From positions 320,001-384,000 of the forward strand of contig CBDFGR010000002.1 of NCBI GenBank assembly GCA_965247115.1: a DNA stretch of 64,000 bases. Reading direction: 5' to 3'. Under the pieces are notes generated by a model. That model saw only the letters and a program-made list of their open reading frames with translations. It ran no database searches and was not told where the DNA came from. The stretch comes from Myxococcota bacterium (GTDB lineage Bacteria > Myxococcota_A > UBA9160 > SZUA-336). A program made the translations under genes and the position numbers. This document shows, in pieces, positions 38,681-45,508 of this stretch. Position 1 is the stretch's first letter. Every line of letters begins with the position of its first letter.

Positions 38681-39529
38681 TCAACCGTGCCCGAGAGCGT
38701 CCTCCCGCGACCCGCGCGCGGCCGTGATGGCGTTCGCCAGCGCCACGAACTCGATCCCGGACAGGGTCTCACCCCGACGCATCGGATCGATATCCGAGGC
38801 CCGAAAGGCCGCCCCGTCGCCGTCTACGAGGCCCCGCAGCGCTCGGCGCAGGGTCTTCCTGCGGTACTGGAACGCCCCACGCACCACCTTCCGGAGCGTA
38901 GGCAGATCCTGGATCTCGGGGAGCTGCGGCGCCGGATCGAAGACGAGGAAGGTCGAACGAACGCGAGGTCTCGGGACGAACTCCTCCGGACTCAGGTCGA
39001 GCGCGCGTTCTGCACGGCTGAAGAGCCCCGCCCAAACCGACAGGGTGCCGTACGGACGCTCGCTCGGCCCGGCCAGGACGCGGTCCGCAACCTCGCTCTG
39101 CAGCATGAACGCCCAACGCCGGAACGGATTCCGCGGTCCGAGCAAGGCTCCGAGCAGGCGGCCCGAGATCCGGTACGGCAGGTTCCCCAGCAAGACGCAG
39201 GGCTGGCCCAGCTCTCGGCAGATGCCACCGAGGTCCGCGCGAAGAGCGTCCTGATGGCGAACCTCCACGCTCCCTGGCAGGCGCGCCTCGCCGAGCGCGC
39301 GTACCAGACCCCTGTCGACCTCGAGCGCCACCGTGCGGCGGGCCACGCGCGCAATCGGCCGCGTGAGCTCGCCGAGGCCCGGTCCGATCTCGATGGCGGC
39401 ATCCTCCGCAGTGAGCCCGGAGAGCTCCACGAGCCGCCGCGCCGTAGTCCCGGAGCGCAGGAAGTTCTGGCCGCGGGTCCGAGATGGAGCGAGGTGGTAG
39501 CGGTCCAGGGTGTCCCGTATCGAGGCTAT
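38681..39529 (-). CDS. rsmA: 16S rRNA m6,2A dimethyltransferase, probable ATA start
   Basis: RGQNFL motif lies upstream of the first canonical start; IEIGPGLG, ALEVD, GNLPY, MLQSEVADR, FQYRRKTL. Confidence 0.92.
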   Translation of the reverse strand: MASIRDTLDRYHLAPSRTRGQNFLRSGTTARRLVELSGLTAEDAAIEIGPGLGELTRPIARVARRTVALEVDRGLVRALGEARLPGSVEVRHQDALRADLGGICRELGQPCVLLGNLPYRISGRLLGALLGPRNPFRRWAFMLQSEVADRVLAGPSERPYGTLSVWAGLFSRAERALDLSPEEFVPRPRVRSTFLVFDPAPQLPEIQDLPTLRKVVRGAFQYRRKTLRRALRGLVDGDGAAFRASDIDPMRRGETLSGIEFVALANAITAARGSREDALGHG

Positions 39530-40563
39530 GCCCTGCCCTCCTCGGGCTCGAGCCGGATGCGCGAGAAGGCCTCGAGGCCGAGGTCGGCGCTTTGCCCTTC
39601 CGACAGGAGCCGATCGGCCACGGCCGCGATCATGGCCGCGTTGTCCGTGCAGAGCGGAACCGGGGGGAACGCAAGCCGGAGCCCGAGCTCTCTCTCCAGT
39701 ACCGCCATGCGCTCGCGCAAGCGGCCGTTGGCCGCCAGGCCTCCCACGACGGCCAGCCGGTGCAACCCGGTCGCATCGATCACGCGGCGCGTCTTCTCGA
39801 TCAGTACGTCCACCGCCGCCTCCTGAAACGAGGCGGCCAGGTCGTTGACGACCTGCTCGGGGAGCGCGCCTCCTGCGCTCTGCTCCGCTTTTCCCACTTC
39901 GAGGGCGACGGCGGTCTTGAGGCCGGAGAAGCTCATGTCGAAGCCCGGGTCCCGGAGCATCGGACGGGGAAAGGCATAGACGTCAGGGCGTCCCCCGCGT
40001 GCCCTCAGATCGATCTCACGGCCGCCCGGATACCCGAGCCCAACCCGCTTGGCAACCTTGTCGAAGGCCTCTCCGGCGGCGTCGTCCCGGGTCTGACCAA
40101 GCAGGCGGATCTTCGCCAGGTCACGGACCTCGTAGAGGGCCGTGTGCCCTCCCGACACGACGAGCCCGATGAACGGCGGCGCTAGGGGCGTCGGAGCCAG
40201 CGTGGCGGACGCAAGGTGGCCTTCGATGTGGTGGACCCCGAGTAGCGGCTTCCGCGCCCGGTAGGCGAGCGCCTTGGCAAAGCAGAGCCCCACCAGCAGC
40301 GACCCGATCAAGCCCGGTCCACACGTCGCGCCGATGCCGTCCACCTCCTGGAGGGACACGCCAGCCCGCGCCAGCGCCTCGCCGACGATCGCGTGCACGT
40401 GGCGTACGTGATCGCGGCTCGCGAGCTCTGGCACGACCCCGCCATAGGGGGCGTGGACGTCGTCCTGCCCGCGCACCACCGACGAGAGCACCTCCTTCCC
40501 GCCGCGGACCACGGCCGCAGCGAGGTCGTCACAGGAGGACTCGATGCCGAGAATGAGGGACAC
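39526..40563 (-). CDS. tsaD: tRNA N6-adenosine threonylcarbamoyltransferase
   Basis: ILGIESSCDD, GGVVPELASRDH, HHIEGH, VSGGHT, DDAAGEAFDK, CTDNAAMI. Confidence 0.97.
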   Translation of the reverse strand: MSLILGIESSCDDLAAAVVRGGKEVLSSVVRGQDDVHAPYGGVVPELASRDHVRHVHAIVGEALARAGVSLQEVDGIGATCGPGLIGSLLVGLCFAKALAYRARKPLLGVHHIEGHLASATLAPTPLAPPFIGLVVSGGHTALYEVRDLAKIRLLGQTRDDAAGEAFDKVAKRVGLGYPGGREIDLRARGGRPDVYAFPRPMLRDPGFDMSFSGLKTAVALEVGKAEQSAGGALPEQVVNDLAASFQEAAVDVLIEKTRRVIDATGLHRLAVVGGLAANGRLRERMAVLERELGLRLAFPPVPLCTDNAAMIAAVADRLLSEGQSADLGLEAFSRIRLEPEEGRA

Positions 40564-40570
40564 GGTCGGG

Positions 40571-40924
40571 TTAGACTTCGCGCTTCTCTTGCTCGCTCTT
40601 GCAGTCGATGCAGAGATCGGCGACGGGACGGGCCTGCAGGCGCTTCAGCCCGATGTCCTCGCCGCACGAGATACAGGTTCCGAACGTACCCGCTTCGATC
40701 TTGGCCAGCGAGGCCTCGATCTTCTCGAGTAGGGCGCGCTCGCGCTCGCGCAGTCGCCCCACGAACGCGACGCCGCTCTCCGAGGACGCGCTGTCGATCT
40801 CGTCCGCGAAGTCGTCGGGGTCGAGGTGGACGTCTCCGGTCATCGCCTTTTTGGCATTCGCGACAAGCTTTTCCTTGGTCTTGTTCAAGGATTTGATGAA
40901 CCTTCTCTGGTCGCTCTTTCTCAC
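40571..40924 (-). CDS. dksA: DksA/TraR C4 zinc-finger protein
   Basis: DEIDSA coiled-coil tip; CISCGEDIGLKRLQARP..CIDC. Confidence 0.9.
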   Translation of the reverse strand: MRKSDQRRFIKSLNKTKEKLVANAKKAMTGDVHLDPDDFADEIDSASSESGVAFVGRLRERERALLEKIEASLAKIEAGTFGTCISCGEDIGLKRLQARPVADLCIDCKSEQEKREV

Positions 40925-41730
40925 GGGCCTAGTCTCTCCAACTCCCTCGTTGCCTCGAGCACGCGGTCTGAATCGGGGTGCTCCATGACGATCCGCTGGA
41001 AGACCTGACGCGCCGCAGGCGCGTAGGCCGCGGTCTGTTGGCTCCGGGTTCCGATCTCCAGCAGGGCCCGCCCTTGTCGGTAGAGCGCGTCGGGAACTTT
41101 ATTGCCATTCGGATAGCGCTTGACGACGTCTTCGAAGACCAGCACTGCGCGCTCGTGATCCCCGAGCTTGAAGTGGCACTCTCCCATCCAGAAGAGCGCG
41201 TTGTCAGCGTAGTCAGAGGACGCGTGAGTTTGGAGGAAGCTCTCGAACTGGTCAATAGCGCGTCGATAGTCTCCGGCGCGGTAGAGCCGGAAGGCGTCCT
41301 CGTAGTCACGGATCTCGCTGCTGGCACCTCCAGACGCACTCGTGAGGGGCACGCGAGAGGGTGCGTCCGCCGCCCCGGCGCCGGGCGCGGGTAGGTCCGT
41401 CGCCGCTCCGAGGGGGCTGCCCAGCGAGTCTCGGGGACTGACCGCGGCAGCATCGGCGCCGCGTGGGGTGCGCCGAAGCTCCTGCTCCGCCGCGTGCTGC
41501 ACCGCCTCAATCTCGCCGCGCAGCATCGAGAGCTCGGAACGCAGCCCGGCCACCTCCTCTCCCAGGTCGGCGAGCCGCTCGCTCACTCGAGCGGTCTCGC
41601 CGGGAGGGGGCGCCTCGCGCTTGAGCTCGGCGACGTCGCGCTCGAGCGCCTGAAAGCGTGGGAGCATGCACCCCGACAGGACCAGGACAGCTGCCCAGGC
41701 CGCGACGTGGGGAGGACCGCTAGGCCTCAC
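40921..41730 (-). CDS. cpoB: Tol-Pal system protein YbgF/CpoB
   Basis: Lipobox LSGC, coiled coil, TPR YADNALFWMGE..KVPDALY; follows pal. Confidence 0.9.
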   Translation of the reverse strand: MRPSGPPHVAAWAAVLVLSGCMLPRFQALERDVAELKREAPPPGETARVSERLADLGEEVAGLRSELSMLRGEIEAVQHAAEQELRRTPRGADAAAVSPRDSLGSPLGAATDLPAPGAGAADAPSRVPLTSASGGASSEIRDYEDAFRLYRAGDYRRAIDQFESFLQTHASSDYADNALFWMGECHFKLGDHERAVLVFEDVVKRYPNGNKVPDALYRQGRALLEIGTRSQQTAAYAPAARQVFQRIVMEHPDSDRVLEATRELERLGP

Positions 41731-42233
41731 CGTATGACGAAGTCGTCGCGCCGGTTCTTGGCCCAGGCCACCTCGTTGTTGCCGCGCACCGCCGGGCGCT
41801 CTTCCCCGTAGCTCACGGTGCCGATGCGCGAGGAGTTGACCCCCAGATCCCTCAGGTAGCGCCTGGCGGATTCCGCGCGCCGGTTCCCGAGGGCCAGGTT
41901 GTACTCGGTGCTCCCGCGGCTGTCGCAGTTGCCCTGGACTTCGATGCGAACGCCGGGGTTCTGCTTGAGCATCTCGGCACTCGCGCGCAGCGTGGCCTTG
42001 GCGTCCGGGCGCAGGCTCGAGTCGTCAAACTCGAAGTAAATGGTCTCGATGTCGACGGAAACCTGCGAGCGCGTTGGAGTCGGGGACCCCCGCGTAGGCT
42101 CGGTTCCGCCCTCCTCCCCGAAGCCCCGGCTCGGCTCTGGCTCGGGCTCGGGCTCGGGACTGCGCGAGGCGCAGCCGGCGACCGCCACAGTCAGAATCAC
42201 CACTCCCATCACACCTAGAAGTCTCTTCACCAC
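41727..42233 (-). CDS. pal: Peptidoglycan-associated lipoprotein
   Basis: Lipobox VAGC, IYFEFD, DSRGSTEYNLALGNRRA, SYGEERP, WAKNRR. Confidence 0.95.
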   Translation of the reverse strand: MVKRLLGVMGVVILTVAVAGCASRSPEPEPEPEPSRGFGEEGGTEPTRGSPTPTRSQVSVDIETIYFEFDDSSLRPDAKATLRASAEMLKQNPGVRIEVQGNCDSRGSTEYNLALGNRRAESARRYLRDLGVNSSRIGTVSYGEERPAVRGNNEVAWAKNRRDDFVIR

Positions 42234-42325
42234 CCCGAGTCCTCCTCTGCCGTGTGAAATCGCGTAAGCGCTCGATTTCTAGCGGTATCTGGCAGAAGTT
42301 GCAAACCCCTCTTCGAGTTCCGACC

Positions 42326-43627
42326 TCATCTGGGCCAGCTCGACCACGCGGGATTCGTACAACCACCAAAGCCCTCTGTCAGTCGCACTAGGTTACGCCC
42401 GTCCACGTCAATCCGGTAGAGGTCATAGCGGCCGCGGCGAGTGGAGCTAAAGATGAGCTTTCGGCCATCGGGAGCCCAGGCTGGATCCTCGTCACTGCGC
42501 GGGTGCAGCACGAGCGGCGTGGTGTAGCTGCTCTCCGGATCGATCAGATACAGGTCGAAGCTCGTGCCCGTCCTTGCCATGTAGACGATCCACTCGCCAG
42601 TGGGAGACCAGGCCGGGCTCGCGTTGTAGCTACCCTGATACGTCAGGCGTCTGTCCCGTCCGCTCTGCAGATCCTTGACGTAGATCTGCGGGGAGCCCGA
42701 ACGATCGGAGACAAAGGCGAGCTGTTTGCCGTCGGGTGACCAGGAGGGTGAAGTCTCGATCGACCGACCGTTCGTGAGTCGCTCGAGCACGTTTCCTCCC
42801 GAATCCACGCTGTAGATGTCGGTGTTCCCCGCGAGGTTCATCACGACGGCGAGCGCGCCGTCGCTTGGAGCCCAGACACCTCTGTACTTGTCGTACGGCT
42901 GGTCGAGCAACCTCACTCCCTTCCGCGGTCCACGAAAGATCAGCCAGAGATCCGGTCGTCCGCCTTTGAACGACGTATAAACGAGCGATTTTGTGTCCGG
43001 CGACCAGCCGGGAAACAAGTTGATCGCACCGTTTCCCGTGACCCGACGCTTGTTCGCCCCGTCAGCCTCCATCACGAAGACTTCCTTGTTCCCCTCCGTG
43101 TCGGAAACGAAAGCGATCTGCGTTGAGGACACGCCTCGGCGACCGGTAAAGCGCTCCACGATGTCGTCGGCCAGCGCGCGCGCCAGGAGCGAGACCTGCA
43201 CGGCGTCTCCGTCTTTTCTCGCCTGTTTGCCCTGCAAACGACAGCGTATGGTGTCCCATATTTTCAGATGGGCACGCAGCCGGCCGCGCTCGAGCTCGAG
43301 GCGCCCCTGCACCAGGGCGTCGGCACCGATGCTACGCCAGCTGTCACAGTTCAGCGTCGAGCTCGTGAAGTTCTGGGTCTCGCTCGACTCGAGGAAGGCT
43401 TCCTTTGGCACGACCTTGAGCAGACCCGAGTAGTCCAGGGCGCCGACGAGGGCCTGGTGGAACTGGTCGCGATGGACTGCGACGTCCCCCTCCGCCGCAA
43501 AGCGCTGGACCGCTACCTGATAGTCGCGACCTGCCGAGCCGCGAATGTCGATGTGGACCTCCTCCTGCGCCTGCACGGGTAGAGCGCCAACGAGAGCGAC
43601 GAGCGCGAGGCCGAGCGCGCGCATCAC
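42326..43627 (-). CDS. tolB: Tol-Pal beta-propeller protein
   Basis: TQIAFVS, repeated PxWSPDG, FVSDRSGSPQIY. Confidence 0.93.
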   Translation of the reverse strand: MMRALGLALVALVGALPVQAQEEVHIDIRGSAGRDYQVAVQRFAAEGDVAVHRDQFHQALVGALDYSGLLKVVPKEAFLESSETQNFTSSTLNCDSWRSIGADALVQGRLELERGRLRAHLKIWDTIRCRLQGKQARKDGDAVQVSLLARALADDIVERFTGRRGVSSTQIAFVSDTEGNKEVFVMEADGANKRRVTGNGAINLFPGWSPDTKSLVYTSFKGGRPDLWLIFRGPRKGVRLLDQPYDKYRGVWAPSDGALAVVMNLAGNTDIYSVDSGGNVLERLTNGRSIETSPSWSPDGKQLAFVSDRSGSPQIYVKDLQSGRDRRLTYQGSYNASPAWSPTGEWIVYMARTGTSFDLYLIDPESSYTTPLVLHPRSDEDPAWAPDGRKLIFSSTRRGRYDLYRIDVDGRNLVRLTEGFGGCTNPAWSSWPR

Positions 43628-44289
43628 ACCGACTCCCTTGGATCGAAGGTCAGCGTGAGCGTTAAGGCGCCGCGAGGCGGCACAGGGAAAGGTTGGACCT
43701 TCCAGATGGCGCGCTCTGCGGACTCGTCGAAATGTGCATTGCCGGATGTCTTCACCAGATCGAGGGAGCGCACGCCTCCGCCCGCGTCCACCTCGACCCG
43801 AAAGTGCACGATGAACCGGCCCTGCGTGGAGAACACCCGGGCGCCGGCCCAGTTCGCGTAGAGCAGCGCCTTAATGCGCTTGCGGTACGCAGCCATCTCC
43901 GGGTCAAAGCGACCCGCTCGGGCCTCGGTCGTGGATGCGGGCGTGGGCGTCGTCGGTCCAAGCTTGTCGCGCAGCTGCGCAACGATCTGCTCCGCGCTCA
44001 GTGCCGGCCGCGGCTTTCTGGCAGGGGGCTTCCGGGTCGACCGCGGCCGCTCGGGGATCACGACTTCTTCGACGACCTGACGCGGCTTTTGCCGGGCCGG
44101 CGCCGATGGCGCTGGCTGCGCGACGACCTCGATGAAGATCGGAAGGGGCTCGAGGGGGCGCGCGTCTGAGCGGGGCGACCAGAGCAAGGCCCCTCCCAGA
44201 GCCAGGTGCCCTGCAGCACTCCAGGCCAGCATGCGCCGGAACGCGGTGCTCTCTGCCAGACTTGCGCGGGGGTCGGACGAGTGGCTCAC
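43624..44289 (-). CDS. TolA/TonB-family energy transducer
   Basis: N-terminal TM with SxxxH, Pro-rich linker, TonB-C (SGNAHFDESAERAI); position in tol operon. Confidence 0.85.
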   Translation of the reverse strand: MSHSSDPRASLAESTAFRRMLAWSAAGHLALGGALLWSPRSDARPLEPLPIFIEVVAQPAPSAPARQKPRQVVEEVVIPERPRSTRKPPARKPRPALSAEQIVAQLRDKLGPTTPTPASTTEARAGRFDPEMAAYRKRIKALLYANWAGARVFSTQGRFIVHFRVEVDAGGGVRSLDLVKTSGNAHFDESAERAIWKVQPFPVPPRGALTLTLTFDPRESV

Positions 44290-44708
44290 ACCTCGGGCTC
44301 AGTCACCATGCCGATCCGACTCGCTCCGGCGCGACGTAGGATCGCGAGCGCCTTCGCCACGGTGCCGTAGTCGACCTTCGCGTCGGCGCGCAGGAAGACC
44401 TCCCTGTCCCCGCGGGCCGTGAAGATGCTGTCGAGCTTCGACTCGAGTTCCTTCATCGGCACCTCCGAACGTTGGACGAAGATCTGACCGTCGCGCTTCA
44501 CGCTGACCACGAGTGGCTCGCCGCTGCTCTTCAGGCCCTCCGTCTGCGTCTTCGGCAGCTCGACATCGATGCCCTGCTGGATGAGCGGTGCGGTGATCAT
44601 GAAGATCACGAGCAAGACGAGCATGACGTCGACGAAGGGCGTCACGTTGATCTCCGACATCGCCCGGCGCCGGCGTCTGGGGGCAGCGGGCTCGAAGGGA
44701 GCGCTCAT
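44286..44708 (-). CDS. tolR: TolR
   Basis: MSEINVTPFVDVMLVLLVIFMITAP, LRAD..VDYG. Confidence 0.93.
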   Translation of the reverse strand: MSAPFEPAAPRRRRRAMSEINVTPFVDVMLVLLVIFMITAPLIQQGIDVELPKTQTEGLKSSGEPLVVSVKRDGQIFVQRSEVPMKELESKLDSIFTARGDREVFLRADAKVDYGTVAKALAILRRAGASRIGMVTEPEV

Positions 44709-45349
44709 GCGGCCCTCGCCGCCCGCTCCCGCAGCACCTCGCCGAACTCACTCCGAAACGCATCCAGTCGATCGCCGAGGCGCCCGACGCGTGCACTCGA
44801 GTAGTTGTAGGCGATCACGGCCGGGATCGCCGCGAACAGCCCGACCGCCGTCGCGACCAGAGCCTCGGCGATGCCGGGCGCAACCACCGCAAGGCTTGCG
44901 GAGCCCGTCGCCCCGATGTCTGCGAAGGAGTTCATGATTCCGATCACGGTTCCGAACAGCCCCACGAAGGGCGCGGCACTGCCGGTGGTCGCGAGAAACG
45001 AGAGGCCCCGCTCGAGCCGGTGGGTCTCGTCCGTTTGCACCCAATCCAGACGGCGGATCACGCCGTCGACCCGGCTCGCGGGCGACCGCTCGTCGCTCCT
45101 GGCAAGCTCTTCGAAGCCCACGCGGAAGACCGCGGCGAGCGGACTCCTCGGCCGCTCCCGGGCCACGTCGTAAGCCGCCTCGAGCCGGCCACCGAGATAG
45201 GCCTCGAGAAAGGTCTCCGTGTCCTGGTCCGCGCGCGCTAGCTCGCGGTACTTCAGCAGGATCACGGCCCAGGACGCGATCGACGCCAGGACGAGGGCGA
45301 TCAGCACGACCCTGACGACCAGACTGGCGCCTACGATCAGCTCGAACAT
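44705..45349 (-). CDS. tolQ: TolQ
   Basis: FLATTGSAAPFVGLFGTVIGIM, VAPGIAEALVATAVGLFAAIPA. Confidence 0.93.
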   Translation of the reverse strand: MFELIVGASLVVRVVLIALVLASIASWAVILLKYRELARADQDTETFLEAYLGGRLEAAYDVARERPRSPLAAVFRVGFEELARSDERSPASRVDGVIRRLDWVQTDETHRLERGLSFLATTGSAAPFVGLFGTVIGIMNSFADIGATGSASLAVVAPGIAEALVATAVGLFAAIPAVIAYNYSSARVGRLGDRLDAFRSEFGEVLRERAARAA

Positions 45350-45508
45350 CGGTCTCACTCCGGGGAGGAGTCGGCGGGCCTCGTTCCGAAGCCTGACGAA
45401 GCCGCGGAAGGCTACTCGGCGGCCGTTCTGGCGTCAACGGAGGCAGGGAGGCAGAACTCGGCTAAGATCGGACGCTCCCGACCTCTTGTGACGGGAGAAG
45501 GGGGACCC

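Follow-up and report, generated by a model that had tools for sequence, protein, structure and literature searches.

Translational autocontrol of infC, the gene for IF3, was reportedly described by Butler et al. in 1987. E. coli starts infC with AUU, S. aureus with AUA, and the rsmA gene studied here, that of an uncultured Myxococcota bacterium, resembles infC in having a conserved near-cognate start, a product that affects start scrutiny and a Shine-Dalgarno (SD) sequence at normal spacing. IF3, however, is the proofreader itself, whereas RsmA acts indirectly through 30S maturation. The near-cognate rsmA start is furthermore limited to one family, in which it was reverted several times and infC itself starts with GTG. 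For ksgA of E. coli, van Gemen et al. reportedly described in 1989 an autogenous control through binding of the mRNA, which suggests that the level of KsgA is held in check at translation. That control is a protein-mRNA repression, while in rsmA of the family it would be a matter of start-codon selection.

Natural, conserved starts that lower the output are described for ccpN and citZ (AUA) and cvfC1 (AUU) of S. aureus (bioRxiv 2025.06.19.660503) and for pcnB (AUU) of E. coli (PMC5499595), one of them being presented as condition-sensitive. According to these sources they rely on a strong extended SD, whereas the rsmA start is located in a stop-start overlap and its SD is weak in one large clade. 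Termination-reinitiation at AUGA, as outlined in PMC6728339, shares with rsmA the 4-nt overlap and an SD inside the upstream gene. A difference is the AUAG overlap of rsmA, which joins a near-cognate start to a UAG stop, and the coupling here is putative. Conserved near-cognate starts are thus already known (infC, pcnB, ccpN, citZ and cvfC1). A non-AUG start of rsmA or rlmE was not found in the literature covered, which consisted mostly of titles and abstract openings with few subscription papers.

The window, i.e., the whole stretch of 64,000 nucleotides that was analysed, contains the following features at the junction of tsaD and rsmA:

38681..39529, minus strand: rsmA/ksgA coding frame read from ATA (282 amino acids; GQNFL, EIGPGLG and NLPY motifs; above the TIGR00755 cut-off)
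39428..39430, minus strand: GTG, first canonical codon of the rsmA frame and the start in public gene calls
39458..39472, minus strand: GQNFL motif, rsmA codons 20-24, conserved and preceding any canonical start
39526..39528, minus strand: TAG stop codon of tsaD, forming the 4-nt ATAG overlap with rsmA
39527..39529, minus strand: ATA, inferred start codon of rsmA, with two bases in common with the tsaD stop
39537..39543, minus strand: SD-like GAGGAGG inside tsaD, 7 nt before the ATA
39526..40563, minus strand: tsaD, upstream neighbour of rsmA (above the TIGR03723 cut-off)
40571..40924, minus strand: dksA-like gene upstream of tsaD, the stop codon of which served as a control

On the minus strand the junction reads CCC GAGGAGG GCAGGGC ATA G CC, with a spacer of 7 nt. 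The 3' end of tsaD (40563-39526) is GAG GAG GGC AGG GCA TAG, and the rsmA frame from position 39529 is ATA GCC TCG ATA CGG, followed further on by GGC CAG AAC TTC CTG. Counted from the ATA, the glycine of GQNFL (39472) is codon 20. The first ATG, GTG or TTG of this frame is the GTG at 39430, which is codon 34 and lies past GQNFL, and none of these three codons is present in the 151 open codons upstream of the ATA in this genome. A second in-frame ATA at 39520 was not conserved in relatives. Reading of the minus-strand frame thus confirmed what the preliminary description had seen in the sequence, namely the GQNFL motif upstream of the first canonical start and an ATA that is preceded by GAGGAGG at 7 nt and overlaps the tsaD stop as ATAG. 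Its statement that most junctions of the operon have the same type of overlap was also correct, with 4-nt ATGA or GTGA overlaps at 5 of the 7 other junctions from tolQ to tsaD. The run of genes from tolQ to rsmA suggests one long coupled operon. Upstream, tolQ-tolR-tolA-tolB-pal-ybgF-like genes (window 40571-45358, minus strand) lead into dksA-tsaD-rsmA, and most of the junctions are 4-nt overlaps.

The 282-amino-acid product scored 189.4 bits against TIGR00755 (cut-off 171 bits) and covered positions 3-255 of the 256 of the profile. Residues 5-33 of RsmA aligned to solved KsgA chains. GQNF, GxGxG, the acidic residue of strand 2, NLPY and the C-terminal RRK were invariant or nearly so in an alignment of 12 family sequences and aligned to solved KsgA. 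The one 16S 3' end found had the GGAA loop of helix 45, the substrate of RsmA, and a standard anti-SD; like these, the initiator tRNA looked standard. In public gene calls the start is the GTG at 39430, which gives a product of 249 amino acids without GQNFL, and all 6 members of the database cluster have this length.

A sequencing or assembly error at the ATA was excluded. Contigs from all four sequencing runs examined, one of which may be the source sample and three of which came from three further studies, spanned the junction and had no other letter at 39526-39529. The same ATAG was present in a genome of the same genus at 89% protein identity, confirming that a single-base error, considered unlikely beforehand, is not the cause.

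A match to rsmA was obtained in 59 of the 61 genomes searched. The junction was read in 34 distinct family loci, originating from 29 family genomes (L001-L028 and L058) and 5 metagenome contigs (L140-L144), while L139 and L059-L068 were left out as duplicates. The preliminary description had made its reading depend on conservation in relatives, and a non-AUG start was indeed kept. An ATA 19 codons before GQNF with an overlapping tsaD TAG was present in 24 of the 34 loci, and ATC occupied the same codon in two more (L004 and L017), where the tsaD stop is located 9 nt further on. The start was canonical in seven loci: five have ATG or GTG in this position (L003, L005, L008, L015 and L140), and in two a GTG is located nearby (L006 and L020). 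L014 is without a canonical start. Fifteen of the 24 ATA loci belong to one clade, genus g10, and ATA was present in 7 of the 15 genera. Because an in-frame GTG occurs two codons upstream in L058 and five codons upstream in L017, strictly 25 of the 34 loci have no canonical start; the SD spacing in both favours ATA or ATC over the upstream GTG.

In seven sister families rsmA had a canonical start in all 28 readable loci (18 GTG, 6 TTG and 4 ATG), and in 17 of these the start was within a 4-nt overlap. A 29th sister-family locus (L034) was missed by the pattern owing to its GQSF variant, and an upstream V is visible there. We regard the family-level AUA start of rsmA in a stop-start overlap as real.

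The A before the tsaD TAG was kept at all 24 TAG stops of this junction in the family, where the last tsaD codon exists in 7 versions that encode 7 amino acids. In the genome background an A precedes 168 of 1795 TAG stops (9.4%), and when this genome (G000) was compared with G029, 382 of 3346 four-fold sites (11%) had retained a third-position A. Such retention against a background of about 9% makes it very likely that AUA is the working start, the A probably being retained because it belongs to the sole start of rsmA. In L009 and L012 a TGA is located in frame two codons upstream of the ATA, so an earlier start is impossible in these loci. In seven others (L016, L021, L022, L023, L025, L027 and L028) the ATA is the only ATA, ATT, ATC, CTG, ACG or canonical codon within 40 codons before GQNF. 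Together with the N-terminus that matches KsgA, these data strongly support the earlier proposal of an ATA start, and AUA is very likely the start codon of rsmA.

The overlap is not part of a genome-wide habit. In a set of 4742 genes, predicted with a purpose-written simple gene caller, an ATAG stop was in frame with the next gene in 25 of 83 cases (30%), close to CTAG (23%) and GTAG (28%), while ATGA and GTGA reached 80% and 66%, respectively. A genome-wide relaxed use of ATAG as start overlap was thereby excluded. The duplex of GAGGAGG with the anti-SD of this genome had an energy of -12.1 kcal/mol, compared to a median of -6.6 for ATGA/GTGA overlaps. A strong SD (-9.5 kcal/mol or lower) was present in 8 of the 9 ATA loci that do not belong to g10; within g10 it was present in 1 of 15. 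Single-sequence folds of the 34 junctions gave no common hairpin.

A blind screen of G000 against about 2.0 of the 4.9 Mb of G029 comprised 810 orthologue pairs (340 + 470). Ten pairs had no canonical start in both genomes, 7 of which were false on reading, and three real conserved non-AUG starts were left: rsmA, an rlmE-like gene and a ParA-like gene. Since rsmA was the seed, the independent match among the rRNA methyltransferases is rlmE alone. The rlmE-like 23S methyltransferase gene, directly behind rplC (G000:C3:2134666, plus strand; L379:2167), is without a canonical start; its best match is TIGR00438, below the cut-off. Of the 19 family loci in which this codon was read, out of 24, 18 have ACG there, and eight sister-family genomes had CTG (3), ACG (1), GTG (1), ATG (1) or nothing evident (2). 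All 11 other ribosome-biogenesis genes inspected in G000 have a canonical start available. The infC gene starts at GTG in all 22 family loci (G000:C1:172828 region, plus strand; L219-L248), while 6 of 8 sister-family genomes have ATC or ATT and 2 have ATG.

Several side observations were made. In 21 of the 22 loci an out-of-frame ACG with good SD spacing is located 4 nt upstream of infC, and a five-codon frame from it is closed by a TAG inside infC (21 of 22). It may be a decoy or upstream frame replacing an AUC-type control and is perhaps incidental. The ParA-like ATPase (G000:C3:2039900 region, minus strand; L380 and L415-L434) appears to have an ATT, ATC or ACG start behind a G-rich SD. This apparent non-AUG start spans the family and three sister families, with GTG in one, and it is less certain because in several loci a canonical codon is present upstream, at a distance of 13-24 codons. 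Candidate CTG starts that are TTG or GTG in G029 occur in G000 at C3:2020999 (minus strand), in the C1:138310 region (plus strand) and in the C3:2141550 region (plus strand); one of these genes, behind a strong SD, we take to be that of ribosomal protein S21 (rpsU). At G000:C3:2062592 and C2:1717238 (both minus strand), in genes that are carboxylase-like and ligase-like by eye, a coding signal was seen well before the first canonical codon, with CTAA and ATAG overlaps. Stretches L249-L288 and L319-L378 of G029 have frame breaks in many conserved genes, consistent with indel errors in the assembly.

Outside the family, 10 of 189 rsmA loci had no canonical start within 40 codons; 8 of these had CTG, one was a probable frameshift (L094) and one was ambiguous (L189). 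The apparent CTG starts occurred in two gammaproteobacterial lineages (L209 and L214; L073, L085, L086, L148, L152 and L157). In L209 and L214 the CTG forms a CTGA overlap with the pdxA stop, and L214 has an in-frame stop four codons upstream. In a sample of 30 loci from the order to which one of the CTG lineages belongs, inspection showed canonical starts only. For tsaD, 2 of 60 non-family loci (L041 and L145), both from one lineage, were without a canonical start within 40 codons and had CTG or ACG candidates. With the order sample canonical and a comparable case in tsaD, a broad convergence on non-AUG starts of rsmA was not established.

The junction is best explained, at slightly better than even chances, by a low-dosage AUA start coupled to tsaD. 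Ribosomes finishing tsaD at UAG would start again at the AUA within the overlap, assisted by the SD in those loci that have one, and full-length RsmA would be made steadily in small amounts. Stop-start overlaps are described as the usual coupling signal (PMC6728339), and tsaD and rsmA are probably translationally coupled. Most likely, the ancestor of the family had a weak canonical start in this 4-nt overlap, which changed to AUA a single time. It is the identity of the junctions that suggests one origin, the backbone of the tree being poorly resolved. Weak canonical starts do predominate for rsmA in the sister families. The AUA state would persist because little RsmA is enough and because ATG cannot be reached in one step within the overlap. 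As a by-product, RsmA may rise in cells with immature 30S subunits.

Initiation at AUA is given as 1-2% of that at AUG for an E. coli reporter (bioRxiv 063800) and, for natural sites in S. aureus, as roughly 10-30% (bioRxiv 2025.06.19.660503). In one in vitro E. coli system it is reported to have competed as well as AUG (PMC5499595), so a low output of AUA depends on the context. KsgA that is not released is described as blocking 30S maturation, and its site as overlapping that of IF3 (PMC9032327), which makes a low dosage of RsmA plausible. The low-dosage coupled start is also weakened by the in-frame GTG just upstream in L058 and L017, by the poor SD of most loci in the large g10 clade, and by the non-AUG rlmE-like gene and the GTG start of infC, which together fit a regulatory reading better than plain dosage.

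Such a regulatory reading, possible but doubtful, would make the AUA a selected feedback sensor: AUA would be used more by 30S subunits that are immature or unmethylated, or at a low ratio of IF3 to 30S, so that RsmA would rise whenever subunit maturation falls behind, and the ACG of the rlmE-like gene would do likewise for the large subunit. The preliminary description had based this loop on a relaxed start-codon selection after loss of KsgA, a premise that is supported in E. coli, where deletion of ksgA is reported to raise initiation at near- and non-cognate codons (PMC6868393, section 19; PMC7897474). The loop would therefore have the right sign. As loss of rbfA or lepA is also described as raising near-cognate initiation in E. 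coli (PMC6868393), the response need not be specific for KsgA and would sense 30S immaturity generally. The overlap of the KsgA and IF3 sites also agrees with the sensor, as does the fact that two of the three conserved non-AUG starts in the 810 pairs belong to rRNA methyltransferases whereas all other biogenesis genes inspected are canonical-capable; the same holds for the different infC starts in the family and its sisters and for the CTG starts of rsmA in gammaproteobacteria. The third conserved case, however, is the ParA-like ATPase, which is unrelated to ribosomes, the control gene tsaD is also without a canonical start in one lineage, and without the seed only rlmE counts as an independent match.

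On a tree of TsaD plus RsmA with 42 rows (L139 and 20 outgroup rows were left out) the family formed one clade. The seven canonical loci were rejected as one clade (p-AU 1.4e-55) and required 7 changes between canonical and non-canonical starts, with FastTree in broad agreement, so exits from AUA are open and tolerated. Stop codons changed 5 times in tsaD, 8 times in dksA and 3 times in rsmA on the family tree. Across the 24 ATA loci the third base was all-G at 4 of 19 comparable third positions, hence the lack of any ATAA among the 24 is unremarkable. A pairwise control, in which TAG was kept in 19 of 40 aligned C-termini, looked supportive, but the tree-based control is fairer. With canonical starts recurring and the turnover of the tsaD stop on the family tree not clearly lower than that of neighbouring stops, selection for AUA over AUG was not demonstrated. 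Weaker hints of a preference came from L004, which has ATC where the tsaD stop moved although ATG was one step away and its same-genus sister L005 has ATG, from the retention of ATAG in all 15 g10 loci and from a class-wide lean to GTG and TTG.

Rather unlikely is the wider proposal that the family moved its initiation-fidelity sensor. In that case infC would have changed from the AUC of the sister families to GUG, while rsmA (AUA) and rlmE (ACG), the two late rRNA methyltransferase genes of subunit maturation, have near-cognate starts behind upstream stops. Their output would rise as scrutiny is relaxed by subunits that are immature or by too little IF3 relative to 30S, a feedback circuit of ribosome maturation that consists of start codons alone; on rsmA the device would possibly have re-evolved in other phyla.

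It is improbable that the AUA is a neutral frozen accident, without benefit even as a dosage limiter, that is tolerated and decays to ATG or GTG at the ordinary rate of stop turnover. The similar stop turnover at the junction and in neighbouring genes and the confinement of ATA to 7 genera fit this explanation, and so do the three lineage-specific CTG candidates of G000, rpsU included, because of which near-cognate starts seem to be tolerated in this genome. ATAG overlaps were, however, not accumulated by other genes. In 33 loci the neighbouring start of tsaD switches freely between ATG (18), GTG (13) and TTG (2), yet it is canonical in every one. Against it stands also, weakly, that g10 kept every ATAG while the dksA and rsmA stops changed twice each in that clade.

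A start elsewhere, be it the downstream GTG with a truncated product, another near-cognate codon or a TsaD-RsmA frameshift fusion, is very improbable. The public gene calls use the GTG at 39430, the frame is open for 151 codons upstream in this genome, and CTG or ATC occurs at -16, -12 or -7 in some family members. The N-terminal 33 codons, however, are conserved as protein in the family and match solved KsgA, and several members have no other near-cognate codon. An upstream canonical start or a fusion was rejected from the junction sequences: L009 and L012 have their in-frame stops, and the last codon of tsaD differs too much, with seven versions, for a common slippery sequence. The suggested link through the t6A modification made by the coupled tsaD found no support and is unlikely, as bacterial fMet-tRNA is stated to lack t6A (PMC4705826) and tsaD also adjoins rsmA in sister families with canonical starts.

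The conserved AUA in a stop-start overlap adds a natural case to the few near-cognate starts listed for bacteria. In this lineage the gene calls for a ribosome enzyme that is nearly universal are wrong, all 6 cluster members checked being truncated at the N-terminus and without the GQNFL motif. If the feedback were true, rsmA would be a natural target for the known loss of start fidelity in ksgA mutants, and it would directly link the maturation of ribosomes to the supply of the maturation enzymes.
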